From an uncultured bacterium (lineage in GTDB: Bacteria > Patescibacteriota > Dojkabacteria > SC72): 56,613 nt of DNA. The notes under the pieces are model-generated. The model was given only the letters and a program-made list of their open reading frames with translations, searched no databases and was not told the origin of the DNA. The stretch spans positions 1-56,613 of the forward strand of contig CAIMEL010000022.1 in assembly GCA_903840015.1 (NCBI GenBank), given 5' to 3'. The translations under genes and the position numbers were made by a program. This document shows positions 29,592 to 40,301 of this stretch, one piece after another; position 1 is the first letter of the stretch; each line of letters begins with the position of its first letter.

Positions 29592-29614
29592 ATCTTCTTG
29601 AATTAGGTCATATG

Positions 29615-29642
29615 GAGGCTACCTTACGGTAGCCTCTTTTTT
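29615..29642 (+). terminator. Intrinsic terminator after rplL
   Basis: GAGGCTACC-TTAC-GGTAGCCTC followed by T6. Confidence 0.85.
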
Positions 29643-29732
29643 ATTCACCATATCGACAAAACATACTATGAAGAAGTATAATCTTAGCAATCTGCCATAA
29701 CTAAATATATCTAAGCTATTAGCGTAAAAACA

Positions 29733-30401
29733 ATGGATTACTCACCACTAACATTGTGGATTTTAGAAAATGGTGTATCTGAACAAACGCTTGACTTGTT
29801 TGTAACTATAACAATACTCGCAACCATAGTTAGTATCGCAAGATATATATTTGGTTCCAAGACATATGGAATATATGCCCCTATAATTCTAGCCATAGCT
29901 TACTCCTACACAGGTTTTCGATATGGATTAGCAATTACCTTTGTTGTCATAGCTACTACCCTACTTTCTTATTCCATACTTAAGAAGATTAGGATGCACT
30001 ACATAACTCGTATTGCCATAAATTACTGTTTACTTTCAATCTCATTGGTTATTTTCTTTCTCCTAATCGGGAAGTATAGTTTAGGCTTGGACAATATGTC
30101 ACAAATACCCTCTCTGGCAGTAATATCTATTGCCGCCCTATCCGATTTCTTCATAAAGCAGTTTGTACAAAAATCTTTCAAGACTGCAGTTATGGTTCTT
30201 TTCTCAACACTAGTTGTTGCCTCAATTGGTTGGTATGTAATATCAAGAGATGTAGTCACAGCATACACCATAAACAACCTATGGTTAGTTCCCCTATTCA
30301 TAGCAATTAATCTAGGCATTGGCCAGTTTAAAGGCTTAAGAGTAAAAGATCTTTTCCGTTTTAACTCAATATTGAAAGAGAAGGACAATGTTTCAAAGTA
30401 A
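29733..30401 (+). CDS. 7TM membrane protein of the transglutaminase-associated 7TM type
   Basis: R...G.KTYGIY.P.IL motif, about seven TMs, terminal G.F.GLR..DL.RF; overlaps the start of the ATP-grasp gene. Confidence 0.75.
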   Translation: MDYSPLTLWILENGVSEQTLDLFVTITILATIVSIARYIFGSKTYGIYAPIILAIAYSYTGFRYGLAITFVVIATTLLSYSILKKIRMHYITRIAINYCLLSISLVIFFLLIGKYSLGLDNMSQIPSLAVISIAALSDFFIKQFVQKSFKTAVMVLFSTLVVASIGWYVISRDVVTAYTINNLWLVPLFIAINLGIGQFKGLRVKDLFRFNSILKEKDNVSK

Positions 30402-31851
30402 TAGAATCAAAGAAATTCTTGGACTTAACCGAAGGAACCAAGAGTACATCCGTCCATTCAATCCACCCTCTGCAAAAAAGATTGCAGATAACAAGATACT
30501 TACAAAGAAAGTGCTAGCAACAGAAGGTATCAATACCCCCTCTGTATACAAATTGGTAAAGAACAAAAAGCAACTTCAATTTCTAGACTGGGAATCACTC
30601 CCAAAAAGTTTTGTGATTAAGCCAAACCAAGGAACTGGAGGAAATGGAATCATAGTTTTCTATGGTAAAAAGAAGGGACAGAATTCCTGGATTAGACCAA
30701 ATGGAACTGTAATGAATCAGAAAGACATAGCATTACACATAGAGAATATCCTAGAAGGGCGATTCTCTATGGGCAATCGTAGTGATATAGCCATCATTGA
30801 AGAGAGAGTGAGAACAGATCCACTCCTTAAACAGTATTCCTACAAAGGAGTTCCAGATATCAGGATAATATGCTTCAATGGAGTCCCAATAATGGCAATG
30901 ACAAGGCTTCCAACGAAAAGATCAAATGGTACAGCAAATCTACACTCTGGGGCCATATGTACAGGACTTGATATTAGTACAGGAATAACCACCTACTCTA
31001 TGCAGATGAATCCCCGAACTATTTTTAGTGATACATACGAGAGTATTGAAAGCACAACAGATCTTAAGGAAAATAAAAAACTAAGTGGCATACAGATACC
31101 AAATTGGAATGACATTTTAACAATAGCCTTGAAGTGCCAACGAGCAAGCAAACTTGGTTATGTTGGTGTCGATATAGCATTGGACATAGAGAAAGGACCT
31201 GTCGTATTTGAACTAAACGCTAGACCGGGACTAGGAATTCAGGTTGCCAACCAAGCAGGTTTAAGGTGGAGACTTGAAAAGGTCAAAGGATTAGAGATAA
31301 AGAATATAAAGCATGGAATTAGAGTCGCACAAAATCTTTTTGGGGGAGAAATCGAAGAGAGTATCGAAGCCATCAGTGGGCGAAAAGTAGTAAGTATTAC
31401 TGAAAAAGTTGTCCTCTTTCACAAAGGATATGACAGTAAGAGTAAAAAGAATTCTATGCTGAAAGAAACAACAACAGCTTTTATGGACACAGGAATTCTT
31501 ACCTCAAGGATAACAAAGAATCTCATAAGTAGAATGGGCTATTTAGATACAGTAAAATACTTTGATTCTCTTAATATACCTAAGAAATTTGAATCCCTTC
31601 AATCAGCTCAGAAATTTATCGATGAGAACCTCTCTCTTTTTCAGGATACAGATATTAAGAGGCTTGCAAAAATTATTGATAATGGTGAGATATGCGTCAG
31701 ACCTGTATTAGAAATAAAGATTAAAATATCTGGTGATATTAAAGATGTTGATATGGTAATCACTGAAGAAACAGAACACTCCGTAGTCATTGGTCGAGGA
31801 GAATTAAAAGGATATTTAATAGATACAAGTAAAACATTTAGAAAAATATGA
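30388..31851 (+). CDS. Alpha-L-glutamate ligase-like ATP-grasp protein fused to a retropepsin/RimB-like protease domain
   Basis: ILGLNRRN..YI...N, ADNK, FVIKP..G.GG.G, GVPDIRII, ANLHSG, GVD, ELNARPG; C-terminal MDTG...RP...IGR. Confidence 0.82.
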   Translation: MFQSNRIKEILGLNRRNQEYIRPFNPPSAKKIADNKILTKKVLATEGINTPSVYKLVKNKKQLQFLDWESLPKSFVIKPNQGTGGNGIIVFYGKKKGQNSWIRPNGTVMNQKDIALHIENILEGRFSMGNRSDIAIIEERVRTDPLLKQYSYKGVPDIRIICFNGVPIMAMTRLPTKRSNGTANLHSGAICTGLDISTGITTYSMQMNPRTIFSDTYESIESTTDLKENKKLSGIQIPNWNDILTIALKCQRASKLGYVGVDIALDIEKGPVVFELNARPGLGIQVANQAGLRWRLEKVKGLEIKNIKHGIRVAQNLFGGEIEESIEAISGRKVVSITEKVVLFHKGYDSKSKKNSMLKETTTAFMDTGILTSRITKNLISRMGYLDTVKYFDSLNIPKKFESLQSAQKFIDENLSLFQDTDIKRLAKIIDNGEICVRPVLEIKIKISGDIKDVDMVITEETEHSVVIGRGELKGYLIDTSKTFRKI

Positions 31852-32831
31852 AAGAATACAAAGAGTATTTAAAAGAAGCGGGCAATGTTCACTTGGCATA
31901 CTACCTTGAAGCTGCAGATTCTTTAGATATTAAATACTCTGTTTTAATACCTAGCTTACTCGCGTTGTTTGAATACAAGAATAAACATTGGTACATCATT
32001 AATACTGTAACTCCCCTAACCTCTTCTCCTAGCACAACAATCTGCAAGAGAAAACACCTTACAAATCTCATTCTGAAGAGATATGGACTTCCTGTACCAT
32101 ACCAGGAGAATATTGGAAGTGTTATAGATGCAATTAAATTTTTTAATAAACACAAGGATATTGTAATCAAACCTACACAGCAACTCGGAGGGCACGGCGT
32201 CTCAATCCTACCTCAAACAGAAGATCAGGTAATTCAGGCATATGAGAATGCTTTTAAGGAGTCACACTCCTCTGGGTCCAACAAAGTTATCGCGGAAGAG
32301 TTCTTTCATGGTGAGAATTACCGTTTCTTAGTCGTTGGCCAAAAGGTTATAGGTGTTGTCAGAAGAAAAGCAGCCCATGTTATCGGCAATAGCAAAAACA
32401 CTATAAGAGAATTAGTGCAGGCGGAGAATGACTTGCGCAAAGAGAAGCTCTTAATGCCGATCTTGATCGACAATGAAGTGAATCTAAAACTCACACGAAG
32501 CAATCTAGATTTAGACTCTATACCAGCTGAGGGAGAAGAAATTATCTTAAGATATAACTGCAATCTAACAACAGGAGGAACAACTGAAGAATGTATGCCA
32601 GAGGTTCACGACTACTACAAACAGATAGCCATCAAAGCGATTAGCTCTGTAGGATCAGAATTCGGAGGAGTTGATATCATCGCAGAGAATATCTCCAAGC
32701 CATCCAAAGTCGCAATCAATGAAATTAACTACAATCCAGGATTAAGGTTACATTACAAGGTAAATAAAGGTAATATTGTAAAAGTGGCCATACCCATTAT
32801 GGAATATATCCGAGATAAGTATATAAATTAA
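31848..32831 (+). CDS. Stand-alone ATP-grasp ligase of cyanophycin synthetase/GshAB type
   Basis: K.LT..IL...GLPVP, VIKP....GG.GV, YRFLVV, A.VIG....TI.ELV..EN, NL..GG, GVDII, EINYNPG. Confidence 0.8.
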   Translation: MKEYKEYLKEAGNVHLAYYLEAADSLDIKYSVLIPSLLALFEYKNKHWYIINTVTPLTSSPSTTICKRKHLTNLILKRYGLPVPYQENIGSVIDAIKFFNKHKDIVIKPTQQLGGHGVSILPQTEDQVIQAYENAFKESHSSGSNKVIAEEFFHGENYRFLVVGQKVIGVVRRKAAHVIGNSKNTIRELVQAENDLRKEKLLMPILIDNEVNLKLTRSNLDLDSIPAEGEEIILRYNCNLTTGGTTEECMPEVHDYYKQIAIKAISSVGSEFGGVDIIAENISKPSKVAINEINYNPGLRLHYKVNKGNIVKVAIPIMEYIRDKYIN

Positions 32832-32842
32832 TATTTACCGAA

Positions 32843-34528
32843 ATGACAGATATAAGAGTTCAACAAGGAATAAACCTAGAATCAGAGATTTCCTTAATTA
32901 CAATCCCCATTCCTTTTAACAAAAACGTTGACACCCTACTTCGTCTAATTGGATCTTTTCATCCAATTTTTATTAAGTCATATACTTACGAAAAAAACTT
33001 AACAATAAAATCTCACCTAACATCCCTCTGGAGGGAAATAGGTACTGTTCTAATTAAACTCTCAAACGAGGAGATAAAATATGAGAAAGCAAAAGAGCTT
33101 TGTGTAGACGAGATTATACGAGAACGCATATCATCGATGTCAACGATTCCTTTACTATTTACATCACACAGTATGGGGCTTGAAACAACGCCCACACTAC
33201 TTCTGGATGAAAGAGTCACATATACAAAGGCATACAACAGACACTATACAATCGGTACTGGACGGAATTCACAGATCATATATTCAATATCTTCTAGTAT
33301 GGACTCCAAGATAGCAAAGGAGGTACAGAAAGATAAATGGTCTTCGAATTTGATGATCTCTCGGCTTGGACTACCAATCCCAAAGTGGGAGGTTGTAGAT
33401 AATGTTTCAGAACTCGAACGAATCTGGGGTCAGTATCAGAAGCCGGTAGTAATCAAACCGACTGGTCTTGTCGGAGGACATGGAGTTGTGGTTGGAATAG
33501 AAACTATCGAAGAGGCAAGAAAAGCATTCAAATTTGCTCAAGACGCCTGCAATACAAATATGCGTAAAGAGTGGCAGCAGAAGATAATGATACAAGAGCA
33601 AATCAAAGGAGAAGATTATCGTCTTTTGGTAATAAATGGGAAATTGGAGATTGCTACAAAGAGAATCCCTGCATTCATAGTAGGAGATGGGAAGCACAGT
33701 ATAGAGGATCTCATAATTGAGACAAACAAAGATCCTCGTAGAGATATATCGAACCCATCACATACGCTGAAGCCAATAGTTATAGACCAGCCATTAAGAG
33801 AATATCTAAAACAACAGAATCTAACTCTTGCATCTATACCTACGAAAGAAGAGAAAATATATGTTAGAAAAGTTGCCAGCATGAGCCAAGGGGGAATAAC
33901 TGAGGATTTTACAGACAAGGTAGGACCAGAGATAAAGGCAATTGTTGAAAGTCTTGCAACCTCAATACATGCATTCACTCTCGGGGTAGATGTAATGTGC
34001 CAAGACATCTCTAAACCACTGACCAAAGAGAATGGAGCTATTCTCGAATACAATACTATGCCAGAAGCATATCTCAACATGTACCCTGTGATAGGCAAGC
34101 AGAGAGAATATGTATTTAAGAGGTATCTAGAAGCTTTAATGAAAGAAAATAGAACAAAACAGATAGCTGTTGTTGGGAACTCTTCTAAAGACATTCCTAC
34201 ACTACTTCGCCAAAAAACATTCTTCAGCTCATATATCGGTGATAATGATACTATCGGAGAATATAAGAATGGAGAGATCAAAATAAACGGATTGGATATA
34301 AATAAAGACCTAGAGAAATGGAAGGCTATTGAGGGATTAAAAGTAAACGCATCATTAGATGCAATCATAATACACCATCGAGATTGGGAAGATGTTCAAG
34401 AATCAGGTTTAGGATTTGACAGAATCGATATGTTGCTTGTTGCCAAAGAGCTTACAAGCCAGAAAGAATTTAGTATTATCAAGAAGTACCAAAGAAGGAA
34501 ATATATAAATAAAATTAAAATATTTTAA
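32843..34528 (+). CDS. Cyanophycin synthetase-like (CphA2-type architecture) ATP-grasp protein
   Basis: PVVIKP..L.GG.GV, GEDYRLLVING, RIPAFIVGDGKHSIEDLI..TN.DPRR, SQGG, GVD, EYN; short degenerate C-terminal domain lacking the Mur-ligase GTNGKT motif. Confidence 0.78.
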   Translation: MTDIRVQQGINLESEISLITIPIPFNKNVDTLLRLIGSFHPIFIKSYTYEKNLTIKSHLTSLWREIGTVLIKLSNEEIKYEKAKELCVDEIIRERISSMSTIPLLFTSHSMGLETTPTLLLDERVTYTKAYNRHYTIGTGRNSQIIYSISSSMDSKIAKEVQKDKWSSNLMISRLGLPIPKWEVVDNVSELERIWGQYQKPVVIKPTGLVGGHGVVVGIETIEEARKAFKFAQDACNTNMRKEWQQKIMIQEQIKGEDYRLLVINGKLEIATKRIPAFIVGDGKHSIEDLIIETNKDPRRDISNPSHTLKPIVIDQPLREYLKQQNLTLASIPTKEEKIYVRKVASMSQGGITEDFTDKVGPEIKAIVESLATSIHAFTLGVDVMCQDISKPLTKENGAILEYNTMPEAYLNMYPVIGKQREYVFKRYLEALMKENRTKQIAVVGNSSKDIPTLLRQKTFFSSYIGDNDTIGEYKNGEIKINGLDINKDLEKWKAIEGLKVNASLDAIIIHHRDWEDVQESGLGFDRIDMLLVAKELTSQKEFSIIKKYQRRKYINKIKIF

Positions 34529-34529
34529 A

Positions 34530-35486
34530 ATGAAATACCTCATAATTGATAAAAGACAACGAGTGGATATAGATGGTATGGGTGATATTCCTACTGCCTC
34601 TGCGAGATTACTAGAGGAACTAGCTAAAAAGAATCTCTCTGGAGATTTTGCATACAATGATCAACTTGAGTTTCTTTTTCTAGACGGGAAAGTTGCTATA
34701 AAAGCTAACGGTAAAGATATTACCGATTATTCACACATCATCTTCAGAGGCCATGCCCTACACAATGACAAAGAGTATCATTTCAAGAGGTACATCATAG
34801 AATACATAGACCAGTATAACGAAGAAAATCCTGAGAAGAAAATCATAGTACAGAATTCCGAAGCAATTAAAAGATTCCCCTATTACAACAAAATAGCCAT
34901 AGCAATGCTCTGTGCTCAAAATAACATTCCTCACTTTAACACATACTTTAGAACGGATGGCGATTATTCACAGGCGCGGGAGATGCTCAATCAATACCCT
35001 CTAATTATAAAAGAGTATTCTGGAGTAAATCGTGTAGAAATTATCGACGGAAAAGAGAAGATTAAGAAGAATGTATTCAAATTGGACACCTTAGAAGATT
35101 ATAAACAGGAAGGACTAAATGGTCAGGATCTCTCAAACTTCTTTTTGCAGGAGTTTTCTGACGCGGGAGAAGATTATCGAATATTTGTTAAACTTGGGAA
35201 AGTTATTGCAGGTTGGAAAAGGATAGCATCAGAAAGCTTTATGACTGTAAGTAAAGGGATCTATGAAATGTATAACGAACCAAATGATGAGATTAAAAAT
35301 ATTGCAGAAAAAATAGCTACTATACTTGATGCAGATTTCATGGCAGTAGACTTTATGAACATTAACGGTAAGCCATATATACAAGAAATTGGATTTCATC
35401 CAGGATATAAAGCGTACGAAACAAAGATAGAAAAAGGAGAGCCTGTAAATATTGCAGAAGCAATTGTTACTGCTTTCAAACAATAG
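34530..35486 (+). CDS. Divergent RimK-family ATP-grasp protein
   Basis: NK, PLIIK, LQEF, EDYRIFV, AVDF, EIG.HPG. Confidence 0.7.
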   Translation: MKYLIIDKRQRVDIDGMGDIPTASARLLEELAKKNLSGDFAYNDQLEFLFLDGKVAIKANGKDITDYSHIIFRGHALHNDKEYHFKRYIIEYIDQYNEENPEKKIIVQNSEAIKRFPYYNKIAIAMLCAQNNIPHFNTYFRTDGDYSQAREMLNQYPLIIKEYSGVNRVEIIDGKEKIKKNVFKLDTLEDYKQEGLNGQDLSNFFLQEFSDAGEDYRIFVKLGKVIAGWKRIASESFMTVSKGIYEMYNEPNDEIKNIAEKIATILDADFMAVDFMNINGKPYIQEIGFHPGYKAYETKIEKGEPVNIAEAIVTAFKQ

Positions 35487-36647
35487 CTATATACCAACCT
35501 TCTTGAATATCTCTTCCCAAAGAGCTTTTGAAGGAACGAGAAGAGGTTTAGGTATTAATCCGTCCTCTACCCAATCACACTGTTTGAACGATATCTTTCC
35601 TGCATACAGTGAAGAATATAGATTTGGTGATTTAGAAAGTTTCCACAAAACACGCTTGAAACCTCTGAAATAGCAGATGTCTTTAGTGTAGATACCGGGC
35701 CTATTAGTATCTGACAGGCCTCGTTTTACACGGAAAGTAACATCAAAAGCAGAATACTTTGGCAAAACACCCAATAGAGAGTTATATAGCTGTCTAAATG
35801 ACAATAATTCCCCTATATATATAGCGTAAACCATTGCAGCTTTATTCCTCAACCATCTCTCAGTTAACAGTGACATATTATGCTCATTCCAAGTTGCCAG
35901 CCCCTCCTCTATATCCAAATATTCAACCAAATTAGGCTTACTCAAGGCGTCGAATCCACTGTTAAGTCCATTGTGTGCTCGTAATACATGGGTTCCAACT
36001 TCATGCACCAAGGTTTTCCTCAACTTATACTTACTTCTCTCAATATTAGGATCTACTAAAATCTGCTTGGTTTTTACACCAACTTTCACCCCATTCTTTG
36101 CTATATTCATGGACTTACTTACTCCCCATCCCTCAAGACCTAATTCCTGAAGTACAGTGTTACAGATTTTTTCAATATCATCATATTTGAGCATTTCACC
36201 TCTTTTACCACTCTGCTCAACCAGAAGATTGTAGTTCGAGGTATTTCCTCTTAGTACCCTGCATGCATTTCTAAACAATTTTATGCTGGGTAATCCATAC
36301 CTCTTTATTGAAATGTCAGTAAATTTCTCATTCTCTCCTACTGCATTCATTAGAGAATTTGCTTCTGCTTTAGAATCGATAAGTTTGATGTAAAAATCAG
36401 ATATACGAGGATCTACATCTGTAATCTCATCAACATCAGATAATTCTTTTAATATTCTCTCATTATCATTTTTGACAATCCTGTATTCGAACTGTGGTTC
36501 ATATGTATCTGAATTGAAAAACTTCTTTTTTTCTGACTCTAAATTGGTCGGCGTAAAGACTAAAGCCGTTGGGATTCTAAGGTTATTCAAAAGAGAAGAG
36601 ACCTCCTGTAGTGTCAACTTGGTTTTCTTGCGAGAGAATATATTCAT
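35487..36647 (-). CDS. DUF1704 / MATCAP-like zinc carboxypeptidase
   Basis: HEVGTHVLR..NG (HExxxH), EEGLA, R.KRG..D...G.YTKD..Y..G and LY.GK motifs. ATG 36647 chosen; the ORF track starts at 36656. Confidence 0.85.
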   Translation of the reverse strand: MNIFSRKKTKLTLQEVSSLLNNLRIPTALVFTPTNLESEKKKFFNSDTYEPQFEYRIVKNDNERILKELSDVDEITDVDPRISDFYIKLIDSKAEANSLMNAVGENEKFTDISIKRYGLPSIKLFRNACRVLRGNTSNYNLLVEQSGKRGEMLKYDDIEKICNTVLQELGLEGWGVSKSMNIAKNGVKVGVKTKQILVDPNIERSKYKLRKTLVHEVGTHVLRAHNGLNSGFDALSKPNLVEYLDIEEGLATWNEHNMSLLTERWLRNKAAMVYAIYIGELLSFRQLYNSLLGVLPKYSAFDVTFRVKRGLSDTNRPGIYTKDICYFRGFKRVLWKLSKSPNLYSSLYAGKISFKQCDWVEDGLIPKPLLVPSKALWEEIFKKVGI

Positions 36648-36671
36648 AGTTAACAAGTATATACTAATTTA

Positions 36672-37691
36672 TTACCTTCTGTAATCTCTATTAAATGAAA
36701 ATGTTCTCTCACCGGAAGCCATCAATTCTAATGCTATACCTGTTCCATTAGCTACACAAAATATTGGATTCTCTGCAACATAGCAAGGTACATTGGTAGC
36801 TCTAGAGAACAGTTTATCTATATTCCTTAATTTTGCAGTACCTCCACTCATAACAATACCTCTATCAATTATATCTGCAGAAAGTTCGGGTGGTGTCTTC
36901 TCAAGAACATTCTGGATTGAACGAATAATACTTTTTAATGGAATTTCTAATGCATTAGCAATATCGTTTGAATTCACCACTATGGATTTTGGCATACCTG
37001 CACCAATATCTCGACCTCTTACCTCAGTTTCTTTAGGATCTTTCACTTCTACAGCAGAACCAATGCTCATTTTTATATTCTCAGCTGTCTGTTCTCCTAT
37101 TAAGATACCTTTCTTCTTCCTCATAAAAGAGATTATATATTCATTTAAGGCATCACCAGCAACCCTTAGAGACTCATAACCAACAATTCCATCAAGAGAT
37201 ATTACAGCAATTTCAGAGGTCCCCCCTCCCATATTTATAATCATATTGCCAGAAGACGTATTAATTGGTAAACCTGCTCCAAGCGCAGCAAGTAAAGGCT
37301 CTGGCAAAAGTGTAATACTTTTCGAACCCACAGCATTAGCAGCTTTTAAAACAGCCCTCTCCTCTACTGATGTTATTCCAGCAGGAACACTTATGACAAC
37401 ATCTGGTTTAAAAAATCTAGATCTTCCAAGAGCTTTATCATAGAAATATCTAAGCAGAGCTTCTGTAACCCTAGAATCAGCTATCACACCATTACGAAGA
37501 GGTCTCTTCGCTATAATGTTCTCTGGTGTTTTCCCTATCATCTCCTTGGCCTCTTTCCCTACTGCAATAACCGTAGCAGTATTAACATCTATAGCCACAA
37601 CAGTTGGTTCAGTTAATACAATACCCTCACCCTCTACAAAGGCTACGGAGTTGGCAGTTCCTAAGTCTATACCAAGTTTTTTACCAAACAT
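36672..37691 (-). CDS. mreB: Second MreB/Mbl paralogue
   Basis: GIDLGTAN, EPTVVA, NMGGGTSE, MSGGTA; not linked to mreC/mreD. Confidence 0.9.
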   Translation of the reverse strand: MFGKKLGIDLGTANSVAFVEGEGIVLTEPTVVAIDVNTATVIAVGKEAKEMIGKTPENIIAKRPLRNGVIADSRVTEALLRYFYDKALGRSRFFKPDVVISVPAGITSVEERAVLKAANAVGSKSITLLPEPLLAALGAGLPINTSSGNMIINMGGGTSEIAVISLDGIVGYESLRVAGDALNEYIISFMRKKKGILIGEQTAENIKMSIGSAVEVKDPKETEVRGRDIGAGMPKSIVVNSNDIANALEIPLKSIIRSIQNVLEKTPPELSADIIDRGIVMSGGTAKLRNIDKLFSRATNVPCYVAENPIFCVANGTGIALELMASGERTFSFNRDYRR

Positions 37692-37725
37692 GACAGCTTA
37701 CTAATTATAAGATAATTATTACAAA

Positions 37726-38727
37726 CTAAAACTTCAACTTCATCGCTTCCTTCATGCTATCGGCGATACCTCTAGCGATTGCTGAAACTTTCTGACTACC
37801 AACTACTGCTTTCTCAAGCAATTCTTTCTTCATACCCTCAGCTTCGATTCTACGCACACGTATTGGTGCCAATTTTTCATTCATAACTTCGAATAACCTC
37901 TCTTTAATTTCTACATCTTTGATCCGACCCCTTTCATACAGACATTTCATTTTAGAAACTTCCTCAACATTCGGATTAAACAAATCGTGATATACGAAAG
38001 CTATATTACCTTCTACCTTACCAGGATCTGTAGCATGAATTCGATTTGGATCTGTATATATTTTAAAAACTTTCTTCCTCAACTCCTCCTCAGAATCAGA
38101 GAGATATATACAGTTATTCAGACTCTTACCCATCTTCTCAGCACCATCAATACCTGGCACATTAATTTCTGTACCAAAAAGGGCTTGAGGTTCATTCAGT
38201 AGTTCAACTCCATACGTTCTGTTGAACTTTCTAGCCAACTGCCTTGTATCCTCTACCATTGGAGCCTGATCCTTACCAACAGGAACAAGATCTGCATTAA
38301 CACACAGAATATCTGCTGTTTGATGAATTGGATAAAGGAAAAACCCAAGAGGTGTTGAATCCCCTAAACCTTTTTGAATCAACTCCGTTTTTATCGTTGG
38401 ATTATGTTGTACCTGTTGAACAGTAGCAAAGTTGGAAAGATACATAAAGATCTCATGTATTTCTGGTACTTCACTTTGAATAAAGACTGTAGCCTTATCA
38501 AAATCCAATCCTGTAGCATAGTAATCACACAGCAATTCCTCTATATTTTCTCGAACTTTATCTGGGTTCGCAAAATTATCTGCCAAGGCTTGTATATTTG
38601 CTACTATGATAAATTCTTCATATTCGTCTTGTAGTAAAACCCTATTTTGCAAAGTACCTAATAAATGACCAATATGTAACCTACCTGTCGGCCTATCGCC
38701 TGTTAAAATTCTTTTTCTTTTTTCCAT
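37726..38727 (-). CDS. trpS: Tryptophanyl-tRNA synthetase
   Basis: TGDRPTG.LHIGH, YP..Q.ADI, VPVGKDQ, KMGKS. Confidence 0.96.
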   Translation of the reverse strand: MEKRKRILTGDRPTGRLHIGHLLGTLQNRVLLQDEYEEFIIVANIQALADNFANPDKVRENIEELLCDYYATGLDFDKATVFIQSEVPEIHEIFMYLSNFATVQQVQHNPTIKTELIQKGLGDSTPLGFFLYPIHQTADILCVNADLVPVGKDQAPMVEDTRQLARKFNRTYGVELLNEPQALFGTEINVPGIDGAEKMGKSLNNCIYLSDSEEELRKKVFKIYTDPNRIHATDPGKVEGNIAFVYHDLFNPNVEEVSKMKCLYERGRIKDVEIKERLFEVMNEKLAPIRVRRIEAEGMKKELLEKAVVGSQKVSAIARGIADSMKEAMKLKF

Positions 38728-38774: not shown

Positions 38775-40301
38775 ATGACAAACAAATCATACACAGCTTC
38801 AACAAACCTGCTTCACATACTTTTACCAATCCTTTCAACGGTATTCATATTCGGAATATCTCTTGGTATCTATTACTTCTCCAAAGGATACCGATTCAAT
38901 ATATCTAACAGAGAAATCACAATGACTGGTGTTCTCACAGTCAAAACAGATCCCTCCTTTGCAACTCTATACATTGGGGACGAGGACACGGGAAGAACAC
39001 CAAATAGTACATCTTTGGATATTGGGGATTACAAAATAAGTGTAAAGAAGGATGGATACAACGATTGGCATAAAGACATCACAATACTGGAACAGAAATC
39101 AACACTGATATATCCATGGATGGTACTGAAGGATATTAAAAGCAATAATCTGTGGACGAATAAGAGTAAATTAGTAAAGTATTGGATTAATACAGAGTAC
39201 GACACCTTCCTATTTCTACTTCAAGTTGCTGAGAATAAATACTCTTTATGGAGCTATCGCGTCAACACATCTCTTTGGGATTTCAATACTAACCCTGTTG
39301 AAATACTTGAGTTAACAACAAAAGATATTGAGATTAAGCAATCAAATAAGGGTAACCTCATCTTGCTAACTCAGACTATTGATAAAAAGAAATCTTCATA
39401 CATTCTTGATAGTACAAAGAAGAACGAATTGAAATCTACCCCTGTATTTAATACAGATGGATATGAAAAGCATACCATTACTTGGGCAAATGATAATAGA
39501 CATTTGATTTTAGAATCAACAAACGAATTGCTCTCATACGACACAGTTAGACAAAATATGAATATATTGGCAAAGAAGACCAAAGGTAATACATATATAT
39601 GGACAACTGATGAACAGGGTTTCTTTTACATAATAAAGCAGCTTTCCGAAACAGATCAAAGCATAATATATTCACTTGTACAGTCTAAGATAGATGGCTC
39701 AAGTCCAAAGGAAATAATTGAGAAAATATATATGCGTAAGGAAGCAAAGTATGTCGAATACTACAGGGAAAACGGCTATACTTTAACACCATTTACTAAT
39801 TCTCAGGAAAGTACTCAAACAGCTGGCAAGATAATTTCCATCTTGGTAGATCAGAATGCAAAGGGTGTCTTCATCCAGACCGAATATGCATCCTACTGGT
39901 ATTACATCGATTCGCAGAAATATATAATAGCCTATCCTTACCCAGCAAAACTAATCAGTCTTGCTCCAGATTTGAGAAAAGCCTTACTGTCAGAGAATAA
40001 CAAAGTACTACTATTCACTTTTGACAAGGATGATGCAGACCACACAGAGATAATCGGTACAGAGGAAATTCAAAATATACCAGATGCAAAGAGTATTCGA
40101 TGGGTATCGAATTCGTTAAATATCTACTTTACTCGTGAGAATTCATTATACTCAGCAGATAAGGATGGCGGTAATGAGTGTAAGATTTATGATATTGGAA
40201 GCAAAAAGCTATCTACAATAAGGTCATCCCGTGACCATATCGTTTCTTTGGAAGAGACGACAGCTGGAGAGGTTGTAATAAACGAATATAGAATTCATTA
40301 A
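38775..40301 (+). CDS. Membrane-anchored PEGA domain protein with probable beta-propeller
   Basis: N-terminal TM plus GYRF, PEGA (G.LTVKTDP..A.LYI..GRTP..GDY.I.VKKDGY..W), repeated W/S-D beta blades. Confidence 0.75.
   Translation: MTNKSYTASTNLLHILLPILSTVFIFGISLGIYYFSKGYRFNISNREITMTGVLTVKTDPSFATLYIGDEDTGRTPNSTSLDIGDYKISVKKDGYNDWHKDITILEQKSTLIYPWMVLKDIKSNNLWTNKSKLVKYWINTEYDTFLFLLQVAENKYSLWSYRVNTSLWDFNTNPVEILELTTKDIEIKQSNKGNLILLTQTIDKKKSSYILDSTKKNELKSTPVFNTDGYEKHTITWANDNRHLILESTNELLSYDTVRQNMNILAKKTKGNTYIWTTDEQGFFYIIKQLSETDQSIIYSLVQSKIDGSSPKEIIEKIYMRKEAKYVEYYRENGYTLTPFTNSQESTQTAGKIISILVDQNAKGVFIQTEYASYWYYIDSQKYIIAYPYPAKLISLAPDLRKALLSENNKVLLFTFDKDDADHTEIIGTEEIQNIPDAKSIRWVSNSLNIYFTRENSLYSADKDGGNECKIYDIGSKKLSTIRSSRDHIVSLEETTAGEVVINEYRIH

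Follow-up and report, generated by a model that had tools for sequence, protein, structure and literature searches.

Described systems in which ATP-grasp ligases and peptidases may be compared with the unit studied here, a group of six genes in an uncultured Dojkabacteria bacterium, are RloABC, RimK-RimB, the tubulin tail cycle, CphA1/CphA2 and the QEGLA loci of proteobacteria. The unit lies on contig CAIMEL010000022.1 (56,613 nucleotides (nt); this whole stretch of DNA is referred to below as the window) and encodes a seven-transmembrane (7TM) protein, four ATP-grasp ligases, one of them fused to a retropepsin, and a metallopeptidase of the MATCAP/DUF1704 family. In E. coli, -Glu-Glu is the end of ribosomal protein S6 that serves RimK as an acceptor; TTL and TTLL are ATP-grasp enzymes, human MATCAP is a tubulin detyrosinase, and the N domain of CphA1 holds the polymer. 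To our knowledge, bacterial DUF1704 proteins have no assigned biochemical role.

RimK lengthens RpsF by glutamate at its C-terminus, and these residues are taken off again by RimB, which binds RimK (PMC12239564). RimK also makes free poly-alpha-glutamate (PMC12239564; PMC11957791). An active RimB-RimK hybrid exists, S6 of E. coli ends in GDSEE, and a run of at least five to six glutamates is required for cleavage by RimB, regardless of the carrier protein (PMC11957791). The RloA proteases of Pseudomonas aeruginosa cleave glutamate-rich sequences (Lormand et al., mBio 2025; PMC12239564); mutations in rloB or rloC suppress the defects of the triple Rlo protease mutant and also relieve the harm that loss of the secreted Rlo proteases causes under hypo-osmotic stress, and by these genetics the three Rlo proteins act in one process (PMC12239564). 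TMCP1/2, which belong to the MATCAP family, take Tyr and Glu off the C-terminus and trim chains of polyglutamate (PMC10499314). Full-text searches found no paper joining DUF1704 or MATCAP with an ATP-grasp enzyme, and the study of amidoligases by Iyer et al. (2009) may describe some of the neighbourhoods; a literature search of full texts for "QEGLA" found one paper, a transcriptome table.

The window is contig C22 of a genome (G000) of 680,604 bases in 25 contigs, 96.6% complete (0.68 Mb; Patescibacteria, Candidate Phyla Radiation (CPR)). The six-gene unit spans positions 29733-36656, with five packed genes on the + strand followed by a convergent DUF1704/MATCAP gene on the - strand (ORF, open reading frame; aa, amino acids):

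29733-30401, + strand: g1, 222 aa ORF, 7TM protein
30388-31851, + strand: g2, 487 aa ORF, ATP-grasp ligase with a retropepsin domain
31848-32831, + strand: g3, 327 aa ORF, ATP-grasp ligase
32843-34528, + strand: g4, 561 aa ORF, CphA2-like ligase (by modelling)
34530-35486, + strand: g5, 318 aa ORF, RimK-family ligase
35487-36656, - strand: g6, 389 aa counted from TTG, MATCAP/DUF1704 peptidase

A first-pass annotation, made from the window alone, had described five coupled + strand genes and a convergent gene with an abutting stop codon, and the ORFs were found where it had placed them. Genes g1 and g2 overlap by 14 nt and g2 and g3 by 4 nt, gaps of 11 nt and 1 nt separate g3 from g4 and g4 from g5, and the TAG stop of g5 (35484-35486) abuts the stop of g6 (35487-35489). 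The end formerly given for g6, 36647, corresponds to an in-frame ATG at residue 4 and is the probable start of this gene, since the orthologues begin there as well.

The same three families are combined in one operon here and in RloABC, namely, 7TM_transglut, an ATPgrasp_ST/TIGR02291 ligase and a RimB-type retropepsin. The combination had been called a known triad in the first-pass annotation, to which it can now be added that a partly characterised prototype exists, RloABC of Pseudomonas (PMC12239564). Compared with that prototype, no periplasmic inactive-transglutaminase domain is present on g1; the retropepsin, separate and secreted in the case of RloA, is here cytoplasmic as part of the ligase protein; and the unit further includes three more ATP-grasp ligases and a metallopeptidase of the MATCAP type.

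The comparisons of sequences presented below indicate that the six genes are a real conserved system, an expanded member of a CPR-wide Rim/Rlo-like ligase/peptidase module, which appears to consist of a 7TM protein, a RloC-type ATP-grasp and a peptidase fused to the ligase or encoded beside it. With a probability of roughly 45%, the module would lengthen and shorten a C-terminal acidic chain on the cytoplasmic side of the 7TM protein, probably on the tail of that protein itself.

In the order to which the genome belongs, PF08014 was matched in 38 of 41 genomes (G000 included), and at least three ligase genes adjoined DUF1704 in 17 of the 20 order-level loci fetched (loci are numbered below with the prefix L). 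All five + strand genes were seen in 14 of these 17, the other three being cut by the end of the contig or region; the gene order was rplJ-rplL, the five genes, then convergent DUF1704-mreB-trpS and then a PEGA-domain gene. Loci L007, L010 and L011 had no such adjacency, and in their genomes the RloC-type ligase and its neighbours were located 12-40 kb away or on another contig. Since the gene arrangement recurs in 17 of 20 related loci, it is not due to chance; a lack of co-conservation in relatives, which had been named beforehand as a refuting outcome, was not observed.

An even sample of 301 genomes of the phylum, in which PF14397 (ATPgrasp_ST) was counted at E-values up to 1e-20, contained PF08014 in 59 genomes and PF14397 in 99. 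According to a hand count from the two match tables, both families were present in 56 of the 59 DUF1704 genomes, with no ligase match in the remaining three, and the best DUF1704 match was located at most 10 kb from the ligase in 43 of the 59 (hand count), the two being apart or on different contigs in 13. Many DUF1704 matches fell within frames of 760-860 aa; the ligase was adjacent or fused in 16 of 20 such loci fetched, and tblastn gave a 7TM match in 15 of these 16 (none in L032). Pfam confirmed ATPgrasp_ST~MATCAP proteins with lengths of 784-800 aa, ahead of which PKD+7TM_transglut proteins of 512-523 aa are encoded. A DUF1704 scan of one genome per species revealed 212 relatives, and among the best 80 of these 212, all from Patescibacteria and used as loci, the ligase was directly upstream of DUF1704 in 75 and in the same open frame in 73; five of the 80 loci begin at a contig end, and the 7TM gene is shown in 67. 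DUF1704, for which the first-pass annotation had considered the case of its being unlinked elsewhere, is therefore linked to the ligase and even fused to it in many CPR lineages. A ligase-retropepsin fusion accompanied by a separate MATCAP and further ATP-grasps was also found in L037/L038, L027, L096 and L036, and in L035 a ligase~MATCAP fusion is followed by four further ATP-grasps. The ligase~MATCAP fusions may descend from a ligase-retropepsin-MATCAP arrangement. Judging from these distributions, DUF1704 is in the CPR the core partner of the RloC-type ligase, and the three extra ligases are variable accessories.

Outside the CPR, a Shinella plasmid/chromid record contained an FGase-like amidohydrolase, then QEGLA/DUF1704, then a glutathione-synthetase-type ATP-grasp, and a Vibrio record contained an FGase~MATCAP fusion. 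The proteobacterial QEGLA (TIGR02421) loci are similar to the present one in that DUF1704 is paired with an ATP-grasp and a second hydrolase; they differ in that the ligase is of the glutathione-synthetase type, and no 7TM_transglut partner (PF14402) was matched in four plasmid/chromid records in a search that matched nothing anywhere and so provides no evidence of absence. The FGase-like domain (N-formylglutamate amidohydrolase family) recurs with DUF1704 in L027 (10504-12339, +), L122 (6113-8101) and L123 (5457-8137); in L027, a CPR locus that also has the 7TM protein, the ligase, MATCAP and two ATP-grasps, it is a separate protein of 612 aa.

The g6 product is a gluzincin of the MATCAP/DUF1704 family (PF08014, E-value = 1.7e-29, 103.4 bits versus a cut-off of 27), and its profile matched human MATCAP (7z5g) with an E-value of 5.7e-43. 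The HExxxH motif and the glutamate of EEGLA (H218, E219, H223 and E251) were invariant in 27 sequences. The score of g6 against the QEGLA equivalog TIGR02421 was 120.1 bits, below the cut-off of 338.65. By analogy with its family, we infer that g6 would act as a carboxypeptidase on an acidic tail. In L026 (10547-14004, -), a second divergent MATCAP paralogue (486 aa) is located beside the 7TM gene and the ligase~MATCAP fusion, and after it come genes on the opposite strand for a group-1 glycosyltransferase and a RimK-like ligase; such a paralogue is likewise present in L085 and L093, and the 7TM tails in L026, L085 and L093 end in HDKSA, not in -EE. In L055, L068, L101 and L102, the C-terminal half of the retropepsin profile weakly matched (17-20 bits) the linker of the ligase~MATCAP fusion.

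The N-terminal part of g2 (residues 5-303) is a RloC-type ATP-grasp (PF14397, E-value = 2.8e-67, 227.3 bits versus a cut-off of 31.4), which scored against TIGR02291 just below the equivalog cut-off (2.3e-87, 293 bits versus 314.2); E275 and N277 of its Mg site were invariant in the alignment of orthologues. Its C-terminal domain (residues ~340-487; 170 residues) carries the motif MDTGILTSR with the Asp at position 367, and 15-17 orthologues keep MDTGxLTSR (D367 in at least 90%, Thr invariant) together with a C-terminal IGRxELKGYLIDTSKTF. Pfam gave no match at E-values up to 10 for this domain or for the end regions of g4 and g5. The profile of the domain matched RloA2 (9g59, E-value = 8.6e-4) and RloA (9g58, E-value = 3.9e-3) in the Protein Data Bank (PDB), with both motifs aligned in order, and its AlphaFold2 model (predicted local distance difference test score (pLDDT) of 87.4) had as top Foldseek matches DUF785 (2pma) and RloA/RloA2 (9g58/9g59) with E-values of ~1e-5, followed by Ddi1 and retroviral proteases. 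On the basis of these profile and Foldseek matches, the C-terminal domain of g2 is a RimB/RloA-type retropepsin with a helical insert, and the DTG protease domain recognised in g2 in the earlier annotation is confirmed despite the missing Pfam match. Hydropathy analysis of g2-g6 showed neither a transmembrane segment nor a signal peptide. No separate secreted retropepsin of the RloA kind was found here, the retropepsin fold being the C-terminal domain of a cytoplasmic ligase.

The g1 product belongs to the 7TM_transglut family (PF14402, E-value = 1.7e-17, 64.2 bits versus a cut-off of 25). It matched the RloB model over positions 310-508 only (7.6e-13, 48 bits versus a cut-off of 900) and corresponds to the C-terminal 7TM module of RloB alone, with no extracellular domain; the inactive-transglutaminase domain of RloB (PF14400) was not found on this protein of 222 aa. 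Hydropathy and the positive-inside rule gave an N-out, C-in topology, the first 21 residues being free of Lys and Arg and the last 30 containing seven, and the cytoplasmic C-terminal tail is ...RFNSILKEKDNVSK. In other CPR lineages (L022, L027, L037 and P0001), the 7TM_transglut protein has an N-terminal outward-facing PKD domain, which occupies the position of the inactive transglutaminase domain of proteobacterial RloB. A complex of g2 with g1 was predicted with a score of 0.48 (runs 0.50, 0.48 and 0.46; best control 0.00), which falls among the scores of 0.60 or less at which the mark was passed by 18 of 157 solved complexes and by both passing mismatches; in all, 116 of 157 solved complexes and 2 of 215 mismatched pairs passed the mark. 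The runs shared at least 82% of contacts, the pLDDT of the partner was at least 77, and no interface was reported. The predicted complex lends weak support to an association of the ligase with the 7TM protein as proposed here.

The remaining ligases are of two kinds. The g3 product is a stand-alone ATP-grasp of the cyanophycin-synthetase G-domain type (NF010623, 1.6e-63, positions 167-470 of 871) with conserved residues K108, D276, E292 and N294 in the alignment; its identity to the G domain of g4 is 31%. The g4 product matched the same cyanophycin-synthetase models at 4.3e-72, and its profile matched CphA2 (8fxh, 7ta5) and CphA1 in the PDB with E-values of 1e-68 to 1e-63. The AlphaFold2 model of g4 (pLDDT 90.1) had CphA2 7ta5 as its top Foldseek match (E-value = 4.6e-39, template modelling scores 0.71/0.68, ~600 columns) at ~21% identity, and by this model g4 is CphA2-like, with an N domain and an ATP-grasp G domain, the Mur-ligase-like M domain being reduced to a stub. 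The four distinct ATP-grasps of the earlier annotation were recovered, and the label "ATP-grasp" is incomplete for g4, which resembles a whole CphA2 protein. Both g3 and g4 scored far below the CphA cut-offs (209-243 bits versus 850-877); against TIGR02068 (CphA1) they reached 209 and 239 bits, respectively, versus 850, with matches that stop at model position 470-571 of ~870, and the complete Mur-ligase-like M domain that characterises CphA1 was found in neither. The g5 product is a RimK-family protein (PF08443 4.3e-10, MptN 1.2e-15, rimK_fam 2.9e-13, all under the curated cut-offs) in which K161, D274 and E286 are invariant in the alignment. Against the RimK equivalog NF007764 (cut-off 331 bits), g2, g3 and g5 scored 17.6, 23.2 and 18.6 bits, respectively.

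None of the four ligases reached the curated cut-off of any NCBIfam model, and a canonical Ddl (G000:C4:51715-52251) and a Mur ligase are encoded elsewhere in the genome; both findings support the first-pass annotation, for which ligases that map to a known pathway would have been a refuting outcome. CphA2 polymerises beta-Asp-Arg dipeptides, and no S51 cyanophycinase was found in the genome (96.6% complete). A fifth RimK-family ATP-grasp (G000:C4:42164-42655, +; 313-aa frame; PF08443 5.3e-17) is located ~9 kb from Ddl, and one Mur_ligase_M match was reported in the whole genome.

The C-termini of the candidate acceptors were inspected because RimK-type enzymes extend the C-terminal carboxylate of a protein. 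Outside this order, the 7TM partner of the RloC-type ligase ended in -EE in 71 of 82 cases, typically as ...RFREVxRHxEE (67 of 76 after six duplicate loci were dropped), compared with 3 of the 963 other ORFs that these loci contain with a length of 150 aa or more. An independent search of 1.84 billion cluster representatives gave 2,201 members of the 7TM family, and among the best 150 of these 2,201 representatives, 58 ended in -EE (43 of 81 among those of at least 400 aa); a search for longer 7TM forms gave three proteins. The control set consisted of 20 CPR genomes with the ligase and no DUF1704 match, all loci of which have a 7TM gene and a ligase in a frame of 430-500 aa. The retropepsin part was found in 15 of the 20 (eight by the full-length ligase+retropepsin profile and seven by a separate match) and extra RimK- or CphA-like ligases nearby in 10; none of the 20 7TM tails ended in -EE. 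The -EE end therefore goes with the fused exopeptidase-type partner, and this pattern is compatible with a ligase dependent on an acidic primer, to which a carboxypeptidase would cut the chain back. Among proteobacterial RloB-type 7TM proteins, 0 of 120 ended in -EE, a result that speaks for one clade alone because the sample is a single narrow clade (identity of at least 78%).

Two further candidate acceptors were rejected. The MreB tail is neither acidic nor conserved in 20 loci, ending in ...DYRR in this genus and in KE, SN, SS, NG, LE, SE, NK, SW or TD elsewhere, and S6 of this genome ends in KKKELEI, without an acidic end. A genome-wide screen of C-termini found acid-rich ends in 4 of 669 ORFs, none of them compelling; one of the four is an S3-like ORF (G000:C5:17441-18088, +; S3 identity by eye) that ends in ...DIDREE.

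The unit is flanked in the window by the following features:

29614-29645, + strand: terminator-like hairpin and T-run, closing the upstream rplJ-rplL unit and marking the 5' boundary of the operon
29653-29682, + strand: candidate promoter, TCGACA, 18 nt spacer, TATAAT (11/12 matches), ~50 nt 5' of g1
36672-37691, - strand: mreB (PF06723, 1.1e-126), directly upstream of g6, 15 nt apart

Genes for L10 and L7/L12 (rplJ-rplL) were assigned upstream of g1 by Pfam. The hairpin at 29614-29637 has a stem of 10 pairs, six of them GC, followed by TTTTTATT. Promoter-like sites are not enriched in the region (30 versus a mean of 32 in shuffled sequence), and the site at 29653-29682, the best one there, is a candidate only. 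On the - strand, trpS and mreB lead into g6 (Pfam); the trpS-mreB part of the trpS-mreB-DUF1704 block occupies 36672-38727 (-), with a divergent PEGA-domain gene at 38775-40301 (+). Upstream of DUF1704 and on the same strand, mreB was present in 20 of 20 order-level loci, and rplJ-rplL were seen beside g1 in 7 of 20. Of the 20 order-level loci L002-L021, 19 had a PEGA match and 13 had trpS; the link with MreB was not found in the sister-family locus L036 or in other CPR lineages that have the 7TM-ligase-DUF1704 core. An ORF of 250 aa antisense inside g4 (33616-34368, -) is not supported by any family match and most probably arose by chance in the AT-rich DNA. The available RNA runs covered only small shares of the stretch (0.06-0.18).

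A mechanism can be proposed for the extension and trimming of an acidic chain at the cytoplasmic face. At the inner face of the membrane, the cytoplasmic ligases would use ATP to attach one amino acid after another to a free C-terminal carboxylate, most likely that of the cytoplasmic C-terminal tail of g1. Judged by their families, g2 and g5 would supply glutamate, and aspartate or preformed peptide units would come from the CphA-like g3 and g4; cuts within acidic runs, of the kind made by RimB and RloA, would be the task of the retropepsin domain of g2, and the MATCAP-type g6 would trim the chain from its C-terminal end. In this scheme we infer the acceptor, the added residues and the division of labour among the four ligases. 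The scheme resembles RimK-RimB, in which an ATP-grasp adds Glu to a protein C-terminus and a retropepsin removes it, and the -EE end of CPR 7TM proteins is that of E. coli S6; it differs in that the g2 ligase is of the RloC type (NF007764 17.6 bits versus 331), the domain order is reversed relative to the RimBK hybrid, S6 of this genome has no acidic end and the proposed acceptor is a membrane protein. It also resembles the tubulin tail cycle, since g6 is homologous to human MATCAP and is coupled, and in relatives often fused, to a ligase of the ATP-grasp superfamily that includes TTL, the candidate acceptor tail ends in -EE in relatives, and TMCPs remove C-terminal Tyr and Glu. Unlike that cycle, the present system has no tubulin, its ligases are not of the TTL family and its acceptor is a proposed one, so that the likeness is one of logic and of eraser homology.

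Several points weigh against the tail of the 7TM protein as the product. Within this order, 0 of 13 7TM tails ended in -EE and two in a single E, the tails being hydrophilic and poorly conserved, and the argument for the acceptor is therefore borrowed from other lineages. The counts were drawn from related, non-independent genomes, and the evidence is accordingly overstated. The exceptions to -EE in loci with DUF1704 or its fusions mostly have extra ligases or a retropepsin (L026, L027, L035, L037, L038 and L096), and this tendency also fits a product other than a tail. In g5, the Asn of the E-x-N motif is replaced by Gly or Ser in this genus. The N domain is present in g4, and the whole CphA2 architecture found by Foldseek favours a free polymer, given that the N domain holds the polymer in CphA1. 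The predicted complex of g2 with g1 lends weak support, and the Rlo target could be a protein or free polyglutamate, between which the Pseudomonas study could not decide (PMC12239564).

The 7TM tails of this order usually have an acidic patch 2-6 residues from the end (KEKDNVSK, KNDDTKR, NKDDISN, VIKDE), and that of the sister-family locus L036 ends in SEEEEEEEREEE. A first cut by g6 or by the retropepsin may uncover an acidic residue here, as detyrosination exposes the -EE of tubulin, with the four ligases then building a mixed chain. This order represents a complex grade of the module, with a ligase-retropepsin fusion, a separate MATCAP and three more ligases, and the other reading is that the product of this grade is not the 7TM tail at all. 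The first-pass annotation had proposed a writer/eraser system and had left open whether it makes a polymer, a protein tail or a surface-linked peptide. The conserved, dedicated unit is borne out, and the -EE ends of the relatives point to the 7TM tail, less strongly so in this order.

A serious though less probable alternative is that the ligases make a free oligopeptide or poly-amino acid, soluble or exported (poly-alpha-glutamate or -aspartate, or a cyanophycin-like polymer that the CphA2-like g4 would build from preformed units), serving as an amino-acid or nitrogen store, osmolyte or surface coat, which the peptidases mobilise and the 7TM protein exports, anchors or senses. The full-length match of g4 to CphA2 and the second CphA-type G domain in g3 are in favour of it, as are the formation of free poly-alpha-glutamate by RimK (PMC12239564; PMC11957791) and the harm done under hypo-osmotic stress by loss of the secreted Rlo proteases, with its rescue by rloB/rloC mutations (PMC12239564). 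In Photobacterium damselae, a QEGLA/DUF1704 gene and a gene with a neighbouring tag annotated as GshB were up 27- and 38-fold, respectively, at low salinity (PMC10308900), and DUF1704 of Shinella stands between an FGase-like amidohydrolase and a glutathione-synthetase-type ATP-grasp. The similarity to CphA1/CphA2 extends to the superposition of g4 on full-length CphA2 and to the matches of g3 and g4 to the backbone-extending G domain; however, no functional M domain for side-chain addition is present (a stub in g4), the scores of 209-243 bits are below the cut-offs of 850-877, no cyanophycinase of the S51 family was detected in the genome, and the genes are located within a 7TM/RloC/peptidase operon. 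A free polymer would also leave the -EE ends of 67 of 76 7TM partners of the fused systems unexplained, and an exported product could not be trimmed by g2 and g6, because both peptidases are cytoplasmic here.

The tailing of another protein encoded nearby (MreB, L7/L12, S6 or S3), with the 7TM protein as a regulator, is considered improbable. The constant position of mreB before DUF1704 on the same strand (20 of 20 order-level loci), the rplJ-rplL genes that precede g1 in the window and adjoin it in 7 of 20 loci, the cell-shape defects of Rlo protease mutants (PMC12239564), the ...DIDREE end of the S3-like ORF and the tubulin analogy, in which TTL is an ATP-grasp and MATCAP the matching eraser, would agree with such a role; however, the C-termini of MreB and S6 given above and the scarcity of acid-rich ends (4 of 669 ORFs) are against it, and the adjacency of MreB is missing in L036 and other CPR lineages that keep the 7TM-ligase-DUF1704 core. 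Very improbable is a part in cell-wall chemistry, in which the ligases would make or modify an envelope peptide, such as a peptidoglycan stem or cross-bridge, that is carried by a lipid or sugar and flipped by the 7TM protein. The Pfam label of PF14397 ("sugar-transfer associated"), the sensitivity of Rlo mutants to cell-wall antibiotics (PMC12239564), the neighbouring mreB and PEGA surface-domain genes and the outward PKD domain of the 7TM protein in other CPR lineages point in this direction, whereas a canonical Ddl and a Mur ligase are encoded elsewhere, Pfam found no glycosyltransferase or lipid-carrier gene in the operon within the window, and cytoplasmic peptidases fused to ligases fit one-way biosynthesis poorly.

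The fusions tie bacterial DUF1704 to a specific ATP-grasp ligase and a membrane partner, and the -EE ends give a concrete substrate hypothesis. As a tentative and rather speculative extension, a prokaryotic "tail code" might be envisaged, in which a glutamate-based tail at the cytoplasmic end of the 7TM protein is written by an ATP-grasp and erased by a MATCAP-family carboxypeptidase, the two often forming one polypeptide, and in which the length or composition of the tail encodes a state of the envelope; the retropepsin and the three further ligases of this order would turn the tail into a cleavable heteropolymer. Such a code would be a bacterial counterpart of the tyrosination/glutamylation cycle of tubulin, and its eraser perhaps the evolutionary source of the one acting there. 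The Rlo system bears on stress tolerance, biofilm and antibiotic tolerance in Pseudomonas, and the fused, all-cytoplasmic versions of the CPR may be the simplest form in which the product could be solved. The operon accounts for ~1% of a genome of 0.68 Mb, and since such a share is spent on it and the RloC-type ligase occurs in 99 of 301 genomes, the system likely matters for the envelope or for epibiotic life.

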